Of a stretch of 64,000 nucleotides of DNA, positions 11,147-58,776 are shown piece after piece. The stretch spans positions 104,585 to 168,584 of the IMG/VR virus record IMGVR_UViG_3300009500_000011. One strand, written 5' to 3'. A program made the position numbers and the translations under genes. Positions within the stretch are counted from its first letter, which is position 1; every line of letters begins with the position of its first letter. This DNA is from a virus (Duplodnaviria > Heunggongvirae > Uroviricota > Caudoviricetes). The notes beneath the pieces are model-generated. The model was given only the letters and a program-made list of their open reading frames with translations, did no database searches and was not told the origin of the DNA.

Positions 11147-11659
11147 ATGGATTTTTTAGTTGGCGATATATTAGTTTTAAAACAAGATGCTCTTGACCTT
11201 GAAGATAAAACTGGCAAAACAATTTTATATCCCGCAGGTTCCGAAGCTGAAATTATACAAATAAAAAATGAAAATGAATATCATCTGCAATTTCCAGATG
11301 CCAAAATATGGCCTCATGACTTGGCAACTTTATTGATTTTCTTTAATCGTAAAAAAGATGGTAAAAATGTTTATACTCGCCAGGTTTCAGAGTATGGTAC
11401 GCCACCAAAAGAGCTTGCTTTTTATATACCTAGAGAAGTTGATTGGCGTAAAAACTATAGGTATACTGTCAGAATTGAAGCAGAAGATTGTGGCTTTAAA
11501 AAATTGATTTGTCCTAGTTGTTTCAATGACCTGGGAGAAAATGGCGAACCAGATAATGAAGGTTTGCAAAAATGTCAAAAATGTGGTACAATGGTTCTCC
11601 CGATAGACCCATTAACATTCAAGTATCCACATGATGACGGAAATGAACACACAACTTAA
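11147..11659 (+). CDS. hypothetical protein with C-terminal CxxC...CxxC zinc ribbon
   Basis: CPSCFNDLG...CQKCGT. Confidence 0.35.
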   Translation: MDFLVGDILVLKQDALDLEDKTGKTILYPAGSEAEIIQIKNENEYHLQFPDAKIWPHDLATLLIFFNRKKDGKNVYTRQVSEYGTPPKELAFYIPREVDWRKNYRYTVRIEAEDCGFKKLICPSCFNDLGENGEPDNEGLQKCQKCGTMVLPIDPLTFKYPHDDGNEHTT

Positions 11660-12935
11660 GAGTAATTCTCAAAAATTCTTAGAAGCAGCAAATTGGGCTC
11701 TTGTAAAAGAACGCTTTGGCGAAGATACAGGAGTTAATATTCGTCGCGCTTCTATAGATAATGTGCAAAATATTACGCTTTTCAATGGTTCAAAAGGTTT
11801 ACTTTTTGATGGATATTCGTTTCCTGAACAAGAACATCTTAAAGGCTTGATTGTTCACGAAGTATTAGGAAGCGCACATTCGGTTATAGCGGCATGTTTT
11901 CCTAAATTCTATAACTATGGCGAACCTGCTGAAAAACAAAAGCATCTTGAATACTTAAATGACGATTCTATGAGTGTGTTATTTGCTAAGAAAGAGGATG
12001 GAGTAAATATTCGTCCTTATTTCAATGCTGCAACAAATAGAGTTGAATTTGCTACGCGCGGAACCTTGCTTGTTGTTTCTGATATTGAAGAAACGTCTAA
12101 TCTTGATTATGGCGCAATGGCTCGTTCAATTGCAGAAGAAAAATATCCAATTCTTTTGGATGAGGAATTTGTAAAGAAATACTCTTGTATTTTTGAAATG
12201 ATTCATCCTGATTCCAAAATTCTTACGGATTATGGACAAAGAAAAGACCTTATTCTTCTGTCAGTATTTGATTTAGAAAATAACTGCTATGAATTTTCGC
12301 GTGAATGGGTAGCATCTTGGGCAAATATAATTGGGTTAAATTATGTTGAATATTGGTTTGACCAATATGCGCCTGTTTCTGAATTTTCTTCTTTAGTTGA
12401 AAAACTACTTAAAAAATGGAACGAAACGGATGTAGAAGGTTCTGTTGTTATATTTGTAAACTCTGAAGCAGAACCTGTATATCGTCTTAAAGTTAAAAAT
12501 GCTTATTATTTACAAATGCTTCGACTTGCAAAATTTTGCACTTTGAAGAATTTAGTCTCAATCATGGAAGAAAATAACTTTTCAAATTGGGAACAACTTC
12601 GTGCATATTTGTACGAAAGCCCTTCAATGAATGAAGAATTAGAAATGGCATATAAGGCTCATTTTGATGTATATGAAAATTGGTTAGCAAATCTTGAAAT
12701 CGAAAAACAAAATGTTTTAAAAGAATATCAAGAATTACCTTCTTTCGAATTACAAAAAGATTTTGCTTTATACATCTTAAAAGATGGCGCTTATCCATAC
12801 AATCCGCTATTCTTTGCTATTCGCAAATGGTTAGCAGAAGCCAAAAATCCTAATTTAGAACAATTCTTTGAAGAAAATGTTAAAGCAACAGTAATGTTGA
12901 AGAAAATCTATCCACTATCGGAAGTAGAGGAATAA
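11631..12935 (+). CDS. RNA ligase (T4 Rnl1-like nucleotidyltransferase)
   Basis: Motif I FAKKEDGVN (KxDG), motif IV-like DVEGSVVIF, motif V-like YRLKVK. Confidence 0.55.
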   Translation: MMTEMNTQLKSNSQKFLEAANWALVKERFGEDTGVNIRRASIDNVQNITLFNGSKGLLFDGYSFPEQEHLKGLIVHEVLGSAHSVIAACFPKFYNYGEPAEKQKHLEYLNDDSMSVLFAKKEDGVNIRPYFNAATNRVEFATRGTLLVVSDIEETSNLDYGAMARSIAEEKYPILLDEEFVKKYSCIFEMIHPDSKILTDYGQRKDLILLSVFDLENNCYEFSREWVASWANIIGLNYVEYWFDQYAPVSEFSSLVEKLLKKWNETDVEGSVVIFVNSEAEPVYRLKVKNAYYLQMLRLAKFCTLKNLVSIMEENNFSNWEQLRAYLYESPSMNEELEMAYKAHFDVYENWLANLEIEKQNVLKEYQELPSFELQKDFALYILKDGAYPYNPLFFAIRKWLAEAKNPNLEQFFEENVKATVMLKKIYPLSEVEE

Positions 12936-12936
12936 C

Positions 12937-13443
12937 ATGGGTTTATTTGATTATGTAATTTGTGATTATCCTTTACCTGATTCATATAAAGGGAGTATTA
13001 AGTTTACAACTAAAGACTTAAATTCTTTTATGAATACTTTTACTATTACTGAATCAGGTCAACTTTTAGAACACAAATTTCATTTTGAAGAAGTTCCTGA
13101 AGAAGAACGTCCTAAATTTAATACACCCGAATGGAATTCTGATAACGAAACAATTAAAACTTGGACACGCTTAATGGGTTCAAAGATTCAAGTATTTGAT
13201 GGCTTGGAACCCTACCTTTACACAGGTGCTGTTTGTTTTTACGGTTCAAATTTAGATAGTTGTAATTCGGATGGATATTATACTACAGAAAATGATGAAC
13301 CTTATGAATACAAAGAATACATTGCTTTGTTTAAAAATGGTATGTTAATTAACATTATTGAAAATAATGAAAAAGACAATGAATTTTTTACTCCAGAATG
13401 TTTTTTAACACAAAAACAGTATAAAGAAAAATATAATGAATGA
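12937..13443 (+). CDS. hypothetical protein
   Basis: Track ORF between the ligase and the Thg1-like gene. Confidence 0.4.
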   Translation: MGLFDYVICDYPLPDSYKGSIKFTTKDLNSFMNTFTITESGQLLEHKFHFEEVPEEERPKFNTPEWNSDNETIKTWTRLMGSKIQVFDGLEPYLYTGAVCFYGSNLDSCNSDGYYTTENDEPYEYKEYIALFKNGMLINIIENNEKDNEFFTPECFLTQKQYKEKYNE

Positions 13444-14197
13444 CTCGCTTGGCGACCGAATGAAAACATATTATGAAGATGTGACGCGGCATTACTTGCC
13501 TCGGCGAACTCATACAATTATTCGGTTAGATGGAAAATCTTTTCATACGTATACAAAAAAATTAGCAAGACCATTTGATGCTGGTTTGATTGAAGATATG
13601 CAAAAAACCACAATTCGACTTTGTGAGAATATTCAGGGCGTTGTTCTTGGTTATACGCAATCTGATGAAATATCTCTTGTTTTATGTGATTATAAAGAAA
13701 AAGAAACTGAATCCTTTTTTAAAGGTAATATTCAAAAAATTTGTTCAGTATCTGCAAGTATGGCTACTGCATTCTTCAATGCTTTTAGACAAGCCCGTAA
13801 TTTTGAAGGTGGTCCAGCATTTTTTGATGCTAGAGTATTTACTATTCCAGAAAAGGTAGAAGTTCTTAATTATCTTATTTGGAGACAAAAAGATGCAACA
13901 AGAAATTCTATTCAAATGGCCGCACAATCTGTTTATTCTCATAAAGAACTTAATAAAAAGAAGTGGTCTGATTTAAATGAAATGCTTTTTCAGAAAGGTA
14001 TTAATTTTAATGATTATTCTTCTTCTGAAAAACGTGGTTCTTTAATTGTGAAAGAATATTTTGAAGGGGAAGCCTATGATAAGCGTAAGCAAGAAAATGT
14101 TATAGTTACTCGGTCGCGTTGGATTGTAGAACCTGAAACACCTCTTTTTACTGCTGAAGAAAATAGAGATTTATTTGAAAGGTATTTATATAAATAA
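13436..14197 (+). CDS. Thg1-like protein (tRNA-His guanylyltransferase / 3'-5' polymerase family)
   Basis: N-terminal GDRMKTYYE...HTIIRLDGKSFHTYTKK and SDEISLV match the Thg1/TLP signature. Confidence 0.6.
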   Translation: MNDSLGDRMKTYYEDVTRHYLPRRTHTIIRLDGKSFHTYTKKLARPFDAGLIEDMQKTTIRLCENIQGVVLGYTQSDEISLVLCDYKEKETESFFKGNIQKICSVSASMATAFFNAFRQARNFEGGPAFFDARVFTIPEKVEVLNYLIWRQKDATRNSIQMAAQSVYSHKELNKKKWSDLNEMLFQKGINFNDYSSSEKRGSLIVKEYFEGEAYDKRKQENVIVTRSRWIVEPETPLFTAEENRDLFERYLYK

Positions 14198-14349: not shown

Positions 14350-15051
14350 ATGTATATGCCAAAAAAACAATCTTCTCAAACACCTAGAAGAATTCCAACC
14401 ATAAGAACGGTACAATTTGAAGCCCAAACAATAAATCAAGAGAAGTTTGTAAAAAATATAGAAAGAAATGTTGTTTCATTCGGAATAGGTATACCAGGTT
14501 CAGGAAAAACGTATTTAGCATTAGCAACTGCTCTTAAAGCATTAGTTGAACAAAAATGTGAACGAGTTGTAATAACTAGACCAATGGTTGAAGCAGGTCC
14601 TTCTATCGGATTCCAACCTGGAAATGAAGAAGAAAAACTTGGAGTATATTTAAAACATATTTATGATATGATATATAAATTACTACCAAAAGTTTTGGCA
14701 GATGATTTGCTTGATTCAGGAAAAATATCAATTGGTGCTATTACATTTATGAGAGGAATGAATTTTGAAAACTCATATGTAATAATAGATGAAGCCGAAA
14801 ACTTAGACAAAAAATCATTTTATTTGTTATTAACAAGAATTTGTGAAGGGTCTAAAATGATTTTTTGTGGTGATACTGGCCAGGTTGATTTAAAAAATCC
14901 TAGTGAAAGCGGATTAAATGATGCAGTTTTAAAATTTCAAGGTAAAGAAAATTTTAGTGTAACTGAATTTACTATTGAAGATTGTCGCAGAAGTAAAGTT
15001 GTTATGGAAGTTATTAAAGCATATTTCCCTAACTCAACCAAGACAAAGTAA
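14350..15051 (+). CDS. phoH: PhoH-like ATPase
   Basis: GIGIPGSGKTYLALA Walker A, VIIDEAENL Walker B, typical PhoH length and GDTGQVDL motif. Confidence 0.75.
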   Translation: MYMPKKQSSQTPRRIPTIRTVQFEAQTINQEKFVKNIERNVVSFGIGIPGSGKTYLALATALKALVEQKCERVVITRPMVEAGPSIGFQPGNEEEKLGVYLKHIYDMIYKLLPKVLADDLLDSGKISIGAITFMRGMNFENSYVIIDEAENLDKKSFYLLLTRICEGSKMIFCGDTGQVDLKNPSESGLNDAVLKFQGKENFSVTEFTIEDCRRSKVVMEVIKAYFPNSTKTK

Positions 15052-17137: not shown

Positions 17138-17224
17138 GGAAGTATCGCATAGCGGCGATTGCATCTGACTGTAAATCAGACGCGCGAAAGCGCCTCGGAG
17201 GTTCGAGTCCTTCTACTTCCACCA
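17138..17224 (+). tRNA. tRNA-Tyr (anticodon GTA), type II
   Basis: Acceptor GGAAGTA/TACTTCC, loop CTGTAAA, long variable arm CGCGCGAAAGCGCCTC, T-arm GGAGG-TTCGAGT-CCTTC, A73-CCA. Confidence 0.75.
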
Positions 17225-17234
17225 TTTTAATAAT

Positions 17235-17308
17235 ATTTTGAGTTGCGCTAGAATAAAGTTACTTCGTCTGTAAAACGAGGAATCCGGGTTCGAGTCCCGG
17301 TCGGAATC
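17235..17308 (+). tRNA. tRNA-like element / possible pseudo-tRNA (anticodon loop CTGTAAA = GTA)
   Basis: Acceptor ATTTTGA/TCGGAAT (with G-U pairs), anticodon stem TTCGT/ACGAG, canonical T-arm CCGGG-TTCGAGT-CCCGG. No convincing D-stem; no CCA. Confidence 0.3.
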
Positions 17309-18943: not shown

Positions 18944-18948
18944 ATCAT

Positions 18949-19020
18949 TGGAGTGGTAGCATAGAGGTAATGTACCGTTTTATCGCGAGCGGGATGAAGG
19001 TTCGAGTCCTTCCCCTCCAG
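18949..19020 (+). tRNA. tRNA-like gene with 8-nt anticodon loop (TTATCGCG) - identity unclear
   Basis: Acceptor TGGAGTG/CCCTCCA (one mismatch), D-arm GCAT-AGAGGTA-ATGT, stem CCGTT/AGCGG enclosing 8 nt, canonical T-arm GAAGG-TTCGAGT-CCTTC. Confidence 0.35.
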
Positions 19021-19040
19021 TTCTTTTTTAAAAAGAAATC

Positions 19041-23091: not shown

Positions 23092-23174
23092 GCTGGGGTG
23101 GCTCAGAGGCGACAGCGCCAGTTTTGTAAACTGGTATACAAACAACGTGGGTTCGAGTCCCACCCCCAGCCCCA
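23092..23174 (+). tRNA. tRNA-Thr-like (anticodon TGT) with 12-nt unpaired variable region
   Basis: Acceptor GCTGGGG/CCCCAGC, stem CCAGT/ACTGG, loop TTTGTAA, variable TATACAAACAAC, T-arm GTGGG-TTCGAGT-CCCAC, CCA encoded. Confidence 0.5.
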
Positions 23175-24446: not shown

Positions 24447-24935
24447 TTGAAATATTTTTTTGATACCGAATTCATAGAAAATGGAGAAACTATAGACCTA
24501 GTAAGTATAGGTATTGTTTCTGAAATTGGACGTACTTACTATGCAATTAGTAAAGAATTTGACCCTACCAAGGCTGACCCTTGGGTTATTGAAAATGTTC
24601 TAACTCTTTTAGTTAAAGATGGTAAGCCAATCGAACCTGAAAATTGGAAAAGTCGAGAACAAATTAAGAATGATATTTTAACATTTGTTGATGATGAACC
24701 TGAATTTTGGGCTTGGTACGGAGCTTATGACTGGGTATGTTTAGCACAATTGTTTGGTAAAATGGTAAATTTACCAAAACATTTTCCCATGTATGCCAGA
24801 GATATAAAATTATTATCAGAATTAAAGGGTAATCCTCCTAAGCCTCCTCAAGCAGGAAGTAAGCATAACGCTCTTGAAGATGCAAAATGGAATAGAATGT
24901 TTTATAATATGCTTATCAAGATGCCTTACGTTTGA
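24447..24935 (+). CDS. DEDDh 3'-5' exonuclease
   Basis: Exo I FFDTEF, Exo II YGAYDW, Exo III HNALEDAKW. Confidence 0.55.
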   Translation: MKYFFDTEFIENGETIDLVSIGIVSEIGRTYYAISKEFDPTKADPWVIENVLTLLVKDGKPIEPENWKSREQIKNDILTFVDDEPEFWAWYGAYDWVCLAQLFGKMVNLPKHFPMYARDIKLLSELKGNPPKPPQAGSKHNALEDAKWNRMFYNMLIKMPYV

Positions 24936-25103: not shown

Positions 25104-25188
25104 GGGACTTTGGCAGAGCGGTTATGCAACGGACTCTTAATCCGTGAGGGAAACCTCTATGTGGGTTCGACCCCCACAGGTCCCACCA
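25104..25188 (+). tRNA. type-II tRNA (15-nt variable arm) carrying a Lys-type anticodon loop CTCTTAA (CTT)
   Basis: Acceptor GGGACTT/AGGTCCC, stem ACGGA/TCCGT, variable arm GAGGGAAACCTCTAT, T-arm GTGGG-TTCGACC-CCCAC, A73-CCA. Confidence 0.5.
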
Positions 25189-25197
25189 AATAACTAT

Positions 25198-25274
25198 GGG
25201 ATAGTAGGAGAATTGGCATATCTACCACGTTTAGACCGTGGGTTCTGTGGGTTCAAGTCCCACCTATCCTACCA
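25198..25274 (+). tRNA. class-I tRNA (5-nt variable loop) carrying a Leu-type anticodon TAG
   Basis: Acceptor GGGATAG/CTATCCT, stem CCACG/CGTGG, loop TTTAGAC, T-arm GTGGG-TTCAAGT-CCCAC, A73-CCA. Confidence 0.55.
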
Positions 25275-27320: not shown

Positions 27321-27403
27321 GGGCAAGTGGTGGAACTGGTATACACGTATGTCTAAGAAGCATATGCGAAAGCATGTGGGTTCGAGTCCCACCTTGCCCA
27401 CCA
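27321..27403 (+). tRNA. type-II tRNA, Leu-like body, anticodon loop CTAAGAA (reads AAG; A34 unusual)
   Basis: Acceptor GGGCAAG/CTTGCCC, 7-bp anticodon stem, variable arm TGCGAAAGCAT, T-arm GTGGG-TTCGAGT-CCCAC, A73-CCA. Confidence 0.5.
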
Positions 27404-45400: not shown

Positions 45401-45519
45401 GTTCGAGTCCATTAAGTGTAGTCGGTACACAACTGTAGTTGTTCCATTCGTTTAAATTTTATTTAATCCTTGGGAATATATTTCTCAAGGATTTTTTTGT
45501 TGTCATAAAGGAAAAAAGA

Positions 45520-47205
45520 ATGAAATACAATACTAAAACAGTAAATGCTGGTCCAGGAACAAAAATGATAAATCTTGCAGGCGGAGAAGCTTTTAAAGTT
45601 GATAATCGTACTGCATTATATTTAACTTCTGCAACTTCTTTAGGTGGCGGTCAAGGAAATAAATATTATGTTTCTGCAAATCAAGAATACAAAAATATTC
45701 TTGAACTAATTGAAAAGGTTTCCGCTCAAGACCCAGAATTTATTTTCCAATTGGCTGCATATTGTCGTCAAGATTTATACCTTCGTAGTATTCCAACGGT
45801 ATTATTTATCGAAGGTATTCGTGCAATGCATAAGCAAAAAAAGGCCAATGCACCATATCCAGTAGATGCATCTAAGTATGCAAATGCTATTTTTGGTCGT
45901 GCTGATGAAATTGTTGAAGCAGTTGCATATTGGCTTGGAGTTGAAGGCCATCACAAATTGCCTTCCCCTCTTCGTAAATCTTTGACCATTGCTTTAAATT
46001 CATTTGATGAATACCGCTTGCTTAAATATAATCAAGAAGATAAGCAAGTTACATTTAAAGATATTGTTCGTCTTGTGCATCCAGAACCAAAAACTGATGT
46101 GCAAAGTGCAATTTTCAAATACTTCATCAAGGATGAAATCAGTCCAGAATTAATGCCAAAGGCAACTGCCCGCAAGGCTTTGCTTTCACGTACTCAATTT
46201 GATGAAGAAGCACAACGCTTGATGAGAGATTCATCTGCTACTTGGGAAACTGTAATTGCTAAATTCGGTTCGACTAAAGAAATTTGGGAAGCAGTTATTC
46301 CAAATATGGGATACATGGCTTTATTACGTAATCTTAATAATTTTCTTAAAAAAGAAGTAGATTTAGATTTAGTAATTCCTCGCCTTGTGAATCCGCAAGA
46401 AATTCGTAAAAGCAAGCAATTGCCTTTCCGTTTTTACACAGCAATGAAACAACTTGGTGTAGAAGATAACAATAAGAATTCTACGATGACATATTATGGA
46501 TATTCCGATTCAGTAAAAACAGCATTTGAAAAATGGCGTAATGTAAATTCTAGCGATGGAATTTCTCGTTTACGTAATGCTCTTGGTGTTGCTATGAATA
46601 TTGCAGTAGAAAATGTTCCTCACCTTTCAGGTCGTACCGTTGTTGCGGCAGACCTTTCTGGTTCTATGAGTCAACCTCTTAATAACAAATCAAATGTAAC
46701 TTATCGTGAAATCGCTTGTATTATGGCTGGTATTGCTGGTTCAATAGCACCAGATAATGTAATTTGTGGATTTGGTTGTTCATTTGCTGTTGCTAAAAAA
46801 GGCAAAGATATTCTTGAAACTGCAAATAATATTGATAAATTAAATGTTGGAATGTCAACGGATGCATGGCGTATTCTTGATTACTTGCTTACAAACAAAA
46901 TTTTTGTAGATAGAGTCATGTATTTTACAGATACACAATGTTATAATTCATATGGGGGCGCAAATTTAAACGAACTTTGGAAAAAATACAAAGTTCTTTG
47001 CCAATCAACTGGTAAAAAAGTTCCTGTTCTTTATGAAGTAAATCTTGCAGGTGGTAATACATCTAGTTTTAATTCTGAACAAAGAGTTGCTACCATTGGT
47101 GGATGGTCTGAAAGAATTTTTGATTTAATTACTACTTATGAAACTGACCCTCGTCAAGCAATAAGTAAAATTAAAGAAAAATATTCAGATTTAGTATCTG
47201 TTTAA
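45520..47205 (+). CDS. Ro60/TROVE-domain protein with C-terminal vWA/MIDAS
   Basis: Size, helical N-terminal repeats and C-terminal VVAADLSGSMS MIDAS motif as in Ro60/Rsr orthologues. Start set at ATG 45520 (AAAGGAAAAAAGA upstream). Confidence 0.5.
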   Translation: MKYNTKTVNAGPGTKMINLAGGEAFKVDNRTALYLTSATSLGGGQGNKYYVSANQEYKNILELIEKVSAQDPEFIFQLAAYCRQDLYLRSIPTVLFIEGIRAMHKQKKANAPYPVDASKYANAIFGRADEIVEAVAYWLGVEGHHKLPSPLRKSLTIALNSFDEYRLLKYNQEDKQVTFKDIVRLVHPEPKTDVQSAIFKYFIKDEISPELMPKATARKALLSRTQFDEEAQRLMRDSSATWETVIAKFGSTKEIWEAVIPNMGYMALLRNLNNFLKKEVDLDLVIPRLVNPQEIRKSKQLPFRFYTAMKQLGVEDNNKNSTMTYYGYSDSVKTAFEKWRNVNSSDGISRLRNALGVAMNIAVENVPHLSGRTVVAADLSGSMSQPLNNKSNVTYREIACIMAGIAGSIAPDNVICGFGCSFAVAKKGKDILETANNIDKLNVGMSTDAWRILDYLLTNKIFVDRVMYFTDTQCYNSYGGANLNELWKKYKVLCQSTGKKVPVLYEVNLAGGNTSSFNSEQRVATIGGWSERIFDLITTYETDPRQAISKIKEKYSDLVSV

Positions 47206-48495: not shown

Positions 48496-49146
48496 ATGGA
48501 AACTCAAAAAACCTTCTTTACTAGTGATAATCACTTCAATCATGAGAATATAATTAAATTTTGTTTTCGTGGTTATGGTTCTTATGAAGAAAGAAAAAAT
48601 AACCCAGAACTTCATTTCAAATCAATAGGTGAAATGAATGAAATTATGGTTCAACGTTGGAATGAAGTGGTTGGACCAACCGATACTGTATATGTACTCG
48701 GTGATTTTGCTATGGGTGATAAATATAAGTCTGTTGAATATTTTAATAGGCTAAATGGAACAAAACATCTAGTTCTTGGAAATCATGATTGTAGTAACTT
48801 TGTCAAAAAAGAAGTTCACCCTGCAATCCTTGAAATGGGTTTTGCTTCAATTACTGAAGAACTATACGCAAAAATAGATGGTCGAAATGTATGGATGGCT
48901 CACATTCCATATGGTCATAATAATGATAAACGTAACTATCTTCGTGAAAAAGTTAAGCCAGGTTTTTCTCTTAAAAAAGATGTTATTCTAAGTGGCCATG
49001 TACATGATAAATGGATTATAAATAATCATAATTCCATTAATGTGGGAACAGATGTTTGGGATTTTTACCCTCAAACCTTGTCTCAACTTCTGGAAAAAAC
49101 AAAAGACCTTCCTCGTTTTGATTCTTCAATATTTCTTCCTGTTTAA
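48496..49146 (+). CDS. calcineurin-like metallophosphoesterase
   Basis: TSDNHFNH, LGDFAMGD, GNHD, GHVHD motifs. Confidence 0.6.
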   Translation: METQKTFFTSDNHFNHENIIKFCFRGYGSYEERKNNPELHFKSIGEMNEIMVQRWNEVVGPTDTVYVLGDFAMGDKYKSVEYFNRLNGTKHLVLGNHDCSNFVKKEVHPAILEMGFASITEELYAKIDGRNVWMAHIPYGHNNDKRNYLREKVKPGFSLKKDVILSGHVHDKWIINNHNSINVGTDVWDFYPQTLSQLLEKTKDLPRFDSSIFLPV

Positions 49147-57853: not shown

Positions 57854-58106
57854 CCATTATACTTATTCCTATGATTCTCCTCCTTTTTGTTATAAATGTA
57901 AAACATTACATAATAATAATCTAATTTGTGATGTTCTTAAAGAAGAATATCTTAAAAAAAGTTTAGAACCCGAAAGATTTATAAAAGTCCACGAAGAAAA
58001 ACGCTGGATTGATTCGACTAATTTCCGAATAATAGAATATTTCAATCTTTTGCCTAAAAAAATTTATGGAAATTGGGCTAAACCAATATTGTTGACAAAA
58101 CAATAA
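57846..58106 (+). CDS. hypothetical protein (overlaps the hicA-like stop by 8 nt)
   Basis: Track ORF; no HicB signature seen. Confidence 0.3.
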   Translation: MSDHYTYSYDSPPFCYKCKTLHNNNLICDVLKEEYLKKSLEPERFIKVHEEKRWIDSTNFRIIEYFNLLPKKIYGNWAKPILLTKQ

Positions 58107-58120
58107 AATTGTGCTATTAT
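58092..58120 (+). promoter_or_regulatory. promoter TTGACA-N17-TATTAT for tRNA 58131..58213
   Basis: Ends 10 nt before the tRNA 5' end. Confidence 0.5.
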
Positions 58121-58130
58121 AAAAGTATAT

Positions 58131-58213
58131 CGGCGGGTTCCCGTAGCGGCGAACGGTCTGCTTTTACATGGCAGCATACCACATCGTGGGTTCGAGTCCC
58201 ACCCTGCCGACCA
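58131..58213 (+). tRNA. tRNA-Val-like (anticodon TAC) with ~11-nt unpaired variable region
   Basis: Acceptor CGGCGGG/CCTGCCG, stem CTGCT/GGCAG, loop TTTACAT, variable CATACCACATC, T-arm GTGGG-TTCGAGT-CCCAC, A73-CCA; a consensus promoter lies 10 nt upstream. Confidence 0.45.
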
Positions 58214-58685: not shown

Positions 58686-58776
58686 CTCGGTGTGGTGTAA
58701 CTGGATAGCACAAAACGCTACGAACGTTTAGGGAGCCGCAAGGCCATTGGGGGTTCGAATCCCTCCATCGAGGCCA
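58686..58776 (+). tRNA. type-II tRNA (Ser-like body, G73) carrying an Arg-type anticodon loop CTACGAA (ACG)
   Basis: Acceptor CTCGGTG/CATCGAG, D-arm GTGT-AACTGGATA-GCAC, perfect stem AAACG/CGTTT, variable arm AGGGAGCCGCAAGGCCATT (GCC-GCAA-GGC hairpin), T-arm GGGGG-TTCGAAT-CCCTC, G73-CCA. Confidence 0.5.

Follow-up and report, generated by a model that had tools for sequence, protein, structure and literature searches.

Long unpaired variable loops in tRNA-Thr(UGU) and tRNA-Val(UAC) of a Caudoviricetes phage and in their relatives

Here we describe two tRNA genes, a tRNA-Thr(UGU) and a tRNA-Val(UAC), located in a 64,000-nucleotide stretch of the virus record IMGVR_UViG_3300009500_000011 (Caudoviricetes; positions 104,585 to 168,584 of the record), hereafter the window. 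ARAGORN calls them tRNA-Thr(tgt) and tRNA-Val(tac), both 83 nt long including CCA, among 32 tRNA genes in the window, and the Rfam tRNA model (RF00005) scores them at 57.1 and 34.5 bits, respectively, against a gathering score of 29. An initial annotation had proposed that both carry a long, A/C-rich variable region that is unpaired and unable to form a type-II stem, and ARAGORN, Rfam, and folding agree with it: the Rfam alignment places an 8-9-nt insertion within the variable region of each tRNA, neither region contains G or internal complementarity, and both are open in the ARAGORN and in the minimum-free-energy (ViennaRNA) folds. The variable region of the Thr tRNA is 12 nt long, or 11 nt if G26-U44 is counted as a sixth anticodon-stem pair. 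A reading of the extra bases as an intron was rejected, as both programs place them between positions 44 and 48 and the anticodon loops have the normal 7 nt; neither program returns boundaries that would give loops of 4-5 nt. The insert is retained as part of the mature-type sequence across the family described below. The coordinates of these and other features of the window are collected in Table 1.

Table 1. Features of the window, with positions counted from its first letter.
Feature	Position	Strand	Remarks
tRNA-Thr(UGU) gene, encoded CCA	23092-23174	+	ARAGORN, Rfam
Thr tRNA acceptor stem	23092-23098 with 23164-23170		
Thr tRNA D arm GCTCAGAGGCGACAGC	23101-23116	+	3-bp stem, C13.C22 mismatch, 8-nt loop AGAGGCGA
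Thr tRNA anticodon TGT	23125-23127		
Thr tRNA variable region TATACAAACAAC	23135-23146	+	unpaired, G-free, fits family consensus N-A-Y-A-C-A-A-A-C-A-N-C
Thr tRNA discriminator C	23171		
tRNA-Val(UAC) gene, encoded CCA	58131-58213	+	ARAGORN, Rfam
Val tRNA connector TTC	58138-58140		3 nt
Val tRNA anticodon TAC	58165-58167		
Val tRNA variable region CATACCACATC	58175-58185	+	unpaired, G-free, 11 nt
Val tRNA discriminator A	58210		
Sigma-70-like promoter match TTGACA-17 nt-TATTAT	58092-58120	+	extended -10 TG; 11/12 consensus matches, consensus match only
tRNA-Tyr(GUA), canonical class II	17138-17224	+	D loop AGCGGCGA, 3-bp D stem, GAAA-capped variable hairpin
Truncated Tyr(GUA)-like gene	17242-17308		67 nt, mismatched stems
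tRNA-like gene, 4-base anticodon 'atcg' per ARAGORN	18948-19021		8-nt anticodon loop; Rfam 35.2 bits
tRNA-Lys(CUU)	25104-25188		85 nt; class-II-like variable hairpin GAGG-GAAA-CCTC plus TAT
tRNA-Leu(UAG)	25198-25274		5-nt variable loop, type-I-like
tRNA-Leu(AAG)	27321-27403		10-nt variable region, at most a 2-bp GCGAAAGC mini-hairpin
tRNA-Arg(ACG)	58686-58776		91 nt; imperfect variable arm of ~20 nt
RNA-handling genes among the tRNA array	11631-12935, 13436-14197, 14350-15051, 24447-24935, 45439-47205, 48496-49146		

Apart from the variable region, the two cloverleaves are close to ordinary. Both combine acceptor and T stems of 7 and 5 bp with a T loop of the GTTCGAGTC type; the D loop holds G18G19, and the anticodon loop, of 7 nt, has U33 and a purine at position 37, the sole irregularity being the three-nucleotide connector between the acceptor and D stems of the Val tRNA, because of which Rfam shifts the Val acceptor register by one. 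Their T arms are identical (GTGGGTTCGAGTCCCAC), and the D loop of the Val tRNA is AGCGGCGA. Both acceptor stems had been described as perfect, which holds for Thr with its seven Watson-Crick pairs and not for Val, where six Watson-Crick pairs are accompanied by one G.U; anticodon stems of five pairs are found in both, the Val stem having four Watson-Crick pairs and one U.G. The Val D stem has 4 bp, so that a 3-bp D stem with a non-Watson-Crick 13.22 pair is present in Thr only. In terms of the two tRNA classes, variable regions of 11-12 nt are outside the 4-5 nt of class I and reach the class II length of at least 10 nt, while the class II stem-loop is lacking in both and the isotypes are not those of class II (Leu, Ser, Tyr, Sec): the anticodons are UGU and UAC, with the matching Thr and Val identity elements.

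Distinct sequences of the family to which the Thr tRNA belongs number more than 60; they come from IMG/VR phage contigs, from Sinorhizobium phage Phosso, and from the huge phage LR756502 (loci are labeled L plus a number in the following; LR756502 is L002). BLAST of the region found 81-83-nt tRNA-Thr(UGU) of the same type in Phosso (469 kb) and in the uncultured LR756502 (642 kb), and among 50,697 deposited phage records these two alone have the loop form of Thr. Briefly, IMG/VR was scanned with a D-arm pattern, GTGGCTCAGNGGCGACAGC, that is independent of the variable region. The scan returned 75 loci, and with Phosso and LR756502 there are 77 tRNAs with this D arm, 75 of them Thr (mostly UGU, also CGU and AGU); many of the contigs that carry them exceed 100 kb. 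The variable region is at least 9 nt long in 74/77, being unpaired at 9-12 nt in 58 of these and 14-17 nt long in 16, most of the latter with a 3-4-bp stem and a GAAA-type cap. The loop recurs in dozens of independent homologues and is otherwise scarce, in line with the rarity that had been claimed for it: among bystander phage tRNAs of class-I isotypes, only 12/763 have an unpaired variable region of at least 9 nt. In LR756502, a canonical 73-nt Thr(UGU) (1230-1302) and the 81-nt long-loop Thr(UGU) (1495-1575) lie within 300 nt of each other.

The cloverleaf itself is well supported by the alignment of 30 distinct members with the 12-nt loop, in which 99.5% of cells are paired and 11/20 pairs have changed on both sides; its covariation score is 0.485, compared with 0.136 in shuffles (0/500 reach it) and at most 0.141 with slid partners. 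The pairs G1-C72 and C2-G71 are invariant in the Thr family and present in the window Thr tRNA. The discriminator base varies (U, A, or C). Threonine identity lies in acceptor-stem pairs and anticodon nucleotides, and valine identity in A35, C36, and A73 (PMC9976931), so that the two invariant pairs fit threonine identity.

The variable loop is conserved to the level of the anticodon loop, while compensatory changes have altered the surrounding helices. The 12-mer consensus of 47 distinct members is N-A-Y-A-C-A-A-A-C-A-N-C with A2, A7, A8, C9, A10, and C12 invariant, and in the 30 aligned members there is no variation at A45, A50, A51, C52, A53, and C55. For the subset retrieved by the D arm, and hence unbiased with respect to the variable region, the mean identity of variable positions 2-10 is 89%, while the acceptor stem reaches 69% and the anticodon stem 54-60%. 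G accounts for 2/452 bases of the loop interior, and this near absence probably keeps the strand from mispairing. Mutual information between the variable positions of the loop and all other positions gave weak, phylogeny-like signals only (at most 0.37 bit). A pairing between the loop and the anticodon was considered, as ACAAA of the loop could pair with UUUGU in the anticodon loop of Thr(UGU) and the cognate codon ACA (AAA for Lys) is present in the loop; it was ruled out because the loop is the same or similar in Thr(CGU), Val(UAC), and Gly(UCC) members, where such complementarity is lacking. Judged from the alignments, the loop is under constraint as a selected single strand and is not drifting. 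This bears on the possibility that it is a neutral remnant of a class II variable arm in the course of being lost, with no selected role. Such decay would fit the graded series hairpin, 11-12 nt, 7-8 nt, and 5 nt found on one D arm (see below), the fact that this D arm functions with 5 nt, and the different lengths within Eremiobacterota; yet a neutral loop would have drifted during the many double substitutions in the stems, and the contrast between an interior conserved at 89%, with G at 2/452, and covarying stems at 54-69% makes a decaying relic improbable.

What kind of scaffold holds such a loop? The D stem has 3 bp in 68/82 and 4 bp in 9/82 of the tRNAs with long unpaired variable regions and class-I isotypes, 3 bp in 75/114 and 4 bp in 29/114 of Leu, Ser, and Tyr tRNAs with at least 9 nt in the variable region, and 3 bp in 166/657 and 4 bp in 482/657 of tRNAs with ordinary short variable regions, with some bias in these counts from the way the loci were collected. 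Phage tRNA-Tyr genes have the D loop AGCGGCGA too, among them the window tRNA-Tyr, which is likely an architectural relative. One and the same D arm is combined with hairpins of 14-17 nt (e.g., C-TCC-GAAA-GGA-CAC), with 11-12-nt loops, with 7-8-nt stubs (CAACACC, CACCACC), and with a 5-nt loop, and CAYC or a similar tail ends 64/67 variable regions of at least 7 nt. The scaffold may be summarized as an 8-nt D loop A14-G15-N-G-G-C-G-A and a T arm G(T/G)GGG-TTCGAGT-CCC(A/T)C, with 11-12 nt that would replace a variable hairpin; the Thr type further has a 3-bp D stem with a 13.22 mismatch, and the Lys/Val type one additional connector nucleotide. We consider it probable, from the hairpin-bearing relatives, that the loop arose by collapse of a short GAAA-capped hairpin, in which the 3' stem strand would have been lost and the Gs replaced: N, a 3-nt stem strand, GAAA, a 3-nt stem strand, and CAYC in the hairpin form would correspond to N, AYA, CAAA, and CAYC in the loop form. 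In the folded tRNA, the loop ends would keep core roles, with N44 opposite R26, A45 next to it, and the last C as C48 opposite G15, and the middle ~7 bases would loop out single-stranded.

Several other tRNAs with unusual variable regions were seen in passing. The window tRNA-Lys(CUU) is another class-I isotype with a class-II-like hairpin, and 91-nt Arg(ACG) tRNAs similar to that of the window are present in L030 and L064. Phage tRNA-Ile(UAU) has a long variable hairpin of 22-24 nt in 9/11 bystander examples (L028, L037, L045, L073, L075, L146, and others) and is a separate class. A recurrent ~83-nt tRNA-like sequence (…CCGAGGA(C/G)(G/A)GCTTCTACC(C/T)(G/C)TTTACACGTAACTGGAG(T/C)TGCAAATGGGGGTTCGAATCCCTCC…CCA) in seven loci (L198, L201, L209, L213, L217, L221, and L224) is missed by ARAGORN or labeled tRNA-???. 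The inverse case is found as well, as in the two window Leu tRNAs listed in Table 1: among distinct viral tRNAs, 34 Leu, Ser, or Tyr genes with variable regions shorter than 9 nt were counted, LR756502 has type-I-like and type-II Leu tRNAs together in the same array, and type-I tRNA-Leu is known from Streptomyces (PMC6614811). Of the two remaining irregular genes of the window, the one with the 4-base anticodon could be a frameshift-type tRNA and the truncated Tyr-like one a pseudogene.

The same loop is not restricted to threonine. Two isotype-blind scans of IMG/VR for ACAAACAYC or ATACCACAYC followed by G.GGGTTCGA.TCCC, i.e., loop plus T arm, returned Thr(UGU) 36 times, Thr(CGU) 12, Lys(UUU) 18, Lys(CUU) 2, and Gly(UCC) once. 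Acceptor and anticodon stems are unrelated in the Lys tRNAs among these, whose common features are the D loop (AG.GGCGA or GGCCGA), the 3-nt connector, and the T arm. A contig of a Thioploca bin that resembles a phage tRNA array contains a Gly(UCC) in which the Thr D arm is combined with the loop AAATCAAACACC. Thr, Lys, Val, and Gly tRNAs all have this type of loop, and it is therefore not an aminoacylation identity element. The window Val tRNA is 80-82% identical to phage tRNA-Lys(UUU) with the same loop and to Asn(GUU) with a variable hairpin, and it is nearest to the Lys group; its exact loop CATACCACATC is also found in a tRNA-Thr of the family (L072), and a near-identical one, TATACCACATC, in a phage tRNA-Lys (L160). 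The 3-nt acceptor-D connector (ARAGORN 'sss') is shared by the window Val tRNA, related phage Lys tRNAs, and the phage Tyr L148 and is conserved in that sub-scaffold (L146, L149, L153, L154, L158, L191, L193, and L237). In IMG/VR, the Val D-arm pattern returned Lys and Tyr tRNAs and no Val, and a general pattern for Val(UAC) with a long variable region returned mostly tmRNA 3' ends and tRNA fragments, the only real examples being L041 and L197. Elsewhere, Val(UAC) tRNAs with long, related G-free loops (TATTTCCATC, CATTTCCACC, TTATTTCATC, CATTCCATC) were found at seven metagenome loci, and most of these long-loop Val(UAC) tRNAs carry the exact D arm GCATAGCGGCGATTGC of the window class-II tRNA-Tyr. 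On these resemblances, the window Val tRNA is an offshoot of a scaffold shared between isoacceptors. A common origin of the two window tRNAs had already been suggested in the initial annotation, and the single family consensus (N-A-Y-...-C-A-Y-C, almost no G) together with the common D loop AG.GGCGA and T arm bears it out; we hold with considerable confidence that the scaffold has one ancestry. It would have spread among Thr, Lys, Val, Gly, and Trp by remodeling of the anticodon and the acceptor stem.

The Thr design is also found in bacteria. In GTDB representative genomes, the Thr D-arm pattern matched 64 loci, 15 of them tRNAs, and 10/15 of these tRNAs are from metagenome-assembled genomes (MAGs) labeled Vulcanimicrobiota, Eremiobacterota, or Baltobacteraceae; L112 and L119, on short contigs that were assigned to Rhodospirillales, have tRNAs identical to those of L084 and are probably mis-binned. 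The window Thr tRNA is most similar (86-88%) to these bacterial copies. The variable region of Eremiobacterota tRNA-Thr(UGU) differs between species, being 7-8 nt and A/C-rich, 11 nt (AATACCACACC), or a 14-nt hairpin. Eight loci of Eremiobacterota or Vulcanimicrobiota with such a 7-14-nt variable region in Thr(UGU) were noted (L084, L092, L096, L128, L129, L131, L135, and L140). In all of these except L092, Tyr(GUA)-Gly(UCC)-Thr(GGU) is found no more than ~3 kb from the gene, which in L131 and L135 is directly upstream of Tyr-Gly-Thr(GGU) on the same strand; the order Thr-Tyr-Gly-Thr is that of the E. coli thrU-tyrU-glyT-thrT operon. Two different MAGs have Thr(UGU) in the same neighborhood as genes for an SpoU methylase and the cysteinyl-tRNA synthetase CysRS. 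Given the Tyr-Gly-Thr(GGU), SpoU methylase, and CysRS neighborhood, the gene in the matched MAG loci is a chromosomal tRNA at a standard locus, and a cell with its Thr(UGU) there translates with this design. Going by the matched loci, the design is a chromosomal tRNA-Thr(UGU) of the phylum Eremiobacterota (Vulcanimicrobiota) and is not confined to phages, and the chromosomal locus is the best available evidence that it works in translation.

As for the phage itself, the window has a G+C content of ~32% and encodes a ribonucleotide reductase, a primase, and AAA ATPases. The region around the Val tRNA and a 1191-aa window open reading frame (ORF) gave no match among GenBank phages, and the relatives of the Rnl1-like and Ro-like window proteins among deposited phages are all below 30% identity; the phage is therefore one without a close cultured relative. 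Both tRNAs were also compared by BLAST with 5,426 E. coli genomes, with no meaningful match. Around the Thr gene, the GC-rich flanks gave structure z-scores of +0.72 and +0.33, neither significant, and matched no other Rfam family. The promoter-like site of Table 1 ends 10 nt upstream of the Val tRNA gene. In the window ORFs, 42% of Thr codons are ACA, the commonest of them, and 28% of Val codons are GTA, the second commonest; by ARAGORN the window has one tRNA gene each with the anticodons UGU and UAC, namely the two described here. Because of the encoded CCA, the promoter-like site in front of the Val gene, the matching codon use, and the chromosomal orthologues, both genes very probably encode working elongator tRNAs, their expression and charging being presumed from these features. 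The Thr tRNA would decode ACA and probably ACG, and the Val tRNA GUA and probably GUG, with identity set as usual by G1-C72, C2-G71, and the NGU anticodon for Thr and by A35, C36, and A73 for Val.

A long variable region could in principle make the two tRNAs substrates of SerRS, LeuRS, or TyrRS, in which case ACA or GUA would be read as another amino acid. The class-II-like D arm and the long variable region would suit such recoding, for which the nev-tRNAs (PMC3333845) and allo-tRNAs (PMC5389517) are precedents. Against it, there is no variable stem for SerRS to grip, the discriminator varies among U, A, and C in place of a constant G73 or A73, the NGU anticodon does not vary, nor do G1-C72 and C2-G71, the acceptor and T stems have the standard 7/5 geometry, and Thr(UGU) occupies a canonical locus in Eremiobacterota. 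Recoding is thus the least credible of the explanations that we considered, and we regard it as extremely improbable.

The RNA-handling genes that lie among the tRNA array encode a T4 Rnl1-like RNA ligase, a Thg1-like 3'-5' nucleotidyltransferase, PhoH, an Rv2179c-like 3'-5' exoribonuclease, a Ro60/TROVE protein, and a metallophosphoesterase; the Rfam scan of the window found no Y-RNA family at gathering score. With several such proteins encoded close by, the A/C-rich strand, the D loop, and the T arm could together form the binding site of a phage-encoded protein for modification, repair, or quality control, the candidates being the Ro60-like, Rnl1-like, and Thg1-like proteins, and the conservation of the loop is indeed sequence-specific and spans isoacceptors. 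Close relatives, however, have a hairpin of unrelated sequence instead, and the bacterial copies are chromosomal and have no phage context. The carrier phages are, moreover, very diverse, and no common neighboring gene was seen, although without a systematic co-occurrence test. A protein handle of this kind seems to us very improbable.

Nuclease evasion, which the initial annotation had named along with protein binding as an example of a function, deserves a longer discussion. AriB of E. coli B185, the nuclease of PARIS, cuts between nucleotides 40 and 41 in tRNA-Lys(UUU) and Thr(UGU), and to a lesser degree in Asn(GUU) and Thr(CGU); in an AlphaFold 3 model a second monomer sits on D-loop U16-U17, and the substitutions U39A, A41C, and U16C impair cleavage (all PMC12409363). 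A long variable loop might shield tRNAs from nucleases that cut the anticodon stem in this way, as the variable region (44-48) begins 3 nt past the AriB cut. The surface between the 40/41 cleavage site and the D loop would be blocked, with charging and decoding left intact; such a shield would be indifferent to whether the bulk is a loop or a hairpin, and Eremiobacterota would have fixed the same armor in a housekeeping tRNA. Several observations are in keeping with this. The isotype-blind loop scans gave mostly AriB-type targets (Thr(UGU) 36, Lys(UUU) 18, and Thr(CGU) 12). Among bystander tRNAs, Ile(UAU), Lys(UUU), Asn(GUU), and Lys(CUU) have long variable regions most often, with Lys(UUU) (6/31) and Asn(GUU) (8/47) among the richest. 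Copies of the same anticodon with long and with short variable regions occur together in 11/104 loci. At positions 39, 41, and 16, the window Thr tRNA has A, U, and A and the cleaved E. coli tRNA U, A, and U; U39-C40-A41 is found in 0/47 family members, and the window encodes tRNA-repair-type enzymes, the Rnl1-like ligase and the Thg1-like protein.

Other observations point away from a shield. The steric argument is drawn from a predicted complex, and where phages are known to escape AriB, they do so by point mutations and not by insertions. Since the tRNAs for Lys, Thr, and Asn are related in sequence, with a single mutation separating UUU from UGU, descent can explain the overlap with AriB targets; none of the Val, Gly, Trp, and Ile(UAU) members is a known target. 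In Eremiobacterota the design serves as a chromosomal housekeeping tRNA, and blocking a nuclease has no obvious need for a conserved ACAAACA. We therefore consider a nuclease shield unlikely, and would grant no more to its broader version, in which expansion of the variable region, be it a G-free strand or a mini-hairpin, would be a general phage counter-defense that armors the AriB-attacked Lys UUU, Thr UGU/CGU, and Asn GUU; this too is doubtful.

Taking these considerations together, the reading that we favor, with moderate confidence, is that the two genes encode functional decoders on a class-II-like scaffold in which the variable hairpin has collapsed to a selected single strand. Some points weigh against it. 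First, the identical D arm also occurs with a 5-nt variable loop (Thr L027, Val L009, and Ala L114), and since it works with such a loop, the long one is not structurally obligatory. Second, simple architecture leaves the conservation of A-C-A-A-A-C-A in phages unexplained, while the variable region of Eremiobacterota varies from 7 to 14 nt. Third, the loci were gathered by sequence patterns, and the counts given here are not a census.

By a textbook rule, long variable regions in bacteria and their viruses are said to belong only to Leu, Ser, Tyr, and Sec tRNAs. Contrary to this rule, a conserved long-variable design is used for Thr, Lys, Val, Gly, and others, and it is present in many large uncultivated phages, in cultured phages (Phosso, and phiCbK in the hairpin form), and as a chromosomal Thr(UGU) of one bacterial phylum. 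A literature search, which missed most subscription journals, found no published description of this tRNA family. If the tRNAs function as proposed, ThrRS, EF-Tu, and the ribosome tolerate an insertion of 7-17 nt at the variable site, and the family offers a natural series for studying the interconversion of class I and class II tRNAs. Its isoacceptors overlap the targets of tRNA-cutting defense systems, and the isolates allow a direct test of whether immune nucleases shape phage tRNAs. It is suggested here that annotation pipelines should not treat such tRNAs as pseudogenes or as intron-bearing. The scaffold could also serve as an orthogonal tRNA chassis.

The nearest known counterparts include the tRNA-Lys(CUU) and tRNA-Lys(UUU) of Caulobacter phage phiCbK and its relatives, in which the scaffold occurs in the hairpin form. 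These have the D loop AGTGGCGA or AGCGGCGA, a CATC or CACC tail, and T arms GTGGG-TTCGAGT-CCCAC in Lys(CUU) and GAGGG-TTCGAGT-CCCTC in Lys(UUU), with the ARAGORN 3-nt connector in Lys(CUU) only; unlike the window tRNAs, they have a variable hairpin (L237 3995-4081 and 4088-4178), Lys(CUU) being 87 nt long with C-AGC-GAAA-GCT-CATC and Lys(UUU) 91 nt. The phiCbK genome paper lists them as tRNA-Lys and does not comment on the variable region (PMC3556154). Phage T5 is a known case of phage-encoded tRNAs that resist tRNA-cutting defenses, with tRNA-Lys, Thr, and Asn against PARIS AriB (PMC12409363, PMC11464382) and tRNA-Tyr against retron Ec78 (PMC11555353). The isoacceptors overlap (Lys UUU, Thr UGU/CGU, Asn GUU), the anticodon of the window Thr(UGU) is that of a prime AriB target, and its positions 16, 39, and 41 differ from those of cleaved tRNAs, while Val(UAC) is not a listed target (PMC12409363); the T5 type escapes via point substitutions and has normal variable loops, whereas resistance through a long variable region is hypothetical.

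With the class II bacterial tRNAs (Leu, Ser, Tyr, Sec) the design shares a variable region of at least 10 nt, the 3-bp D stem with unpaired 13.22 in the Thr type, the D loop AGCGGCGA of phage tRNA-Tyr, a single-stranded tail before the T stem, and close relatives with a GAAA-capped hairpin; it differs in having no variable stem, class-I anticodons (Thr, Val), and no sign of the variable arm as a synthetase identity element. The nematode nev-tRNAs and other eukaryotic tRNAs with non-canonical variable arms likewise combine a long variable region with an anticodon that is neither Leu nor Ser, but they are eukaryotic, have a true variable hairpin, and are Leu-charged (PMC3333845), in contrast to the unpaired loop, the intact Thr/Val identity elements, and the carriers, phages and one bacterial phylum, of the present family. 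The allo-tRNAs and the 8/4 or 9/3 tRNAs of Mukai et al. (PMC5389517) are also irregular, occur in phage tRNA clusters, and have long variable regions with diverse anticodons; their 8/4 or 9/3 geometry, long variable stem, and Ser-type identity set them apart from the 7/5, stemless tRNAs of the window. Measured against all of these, the finding is a non-canonical tRNA design, not a new kind of system.

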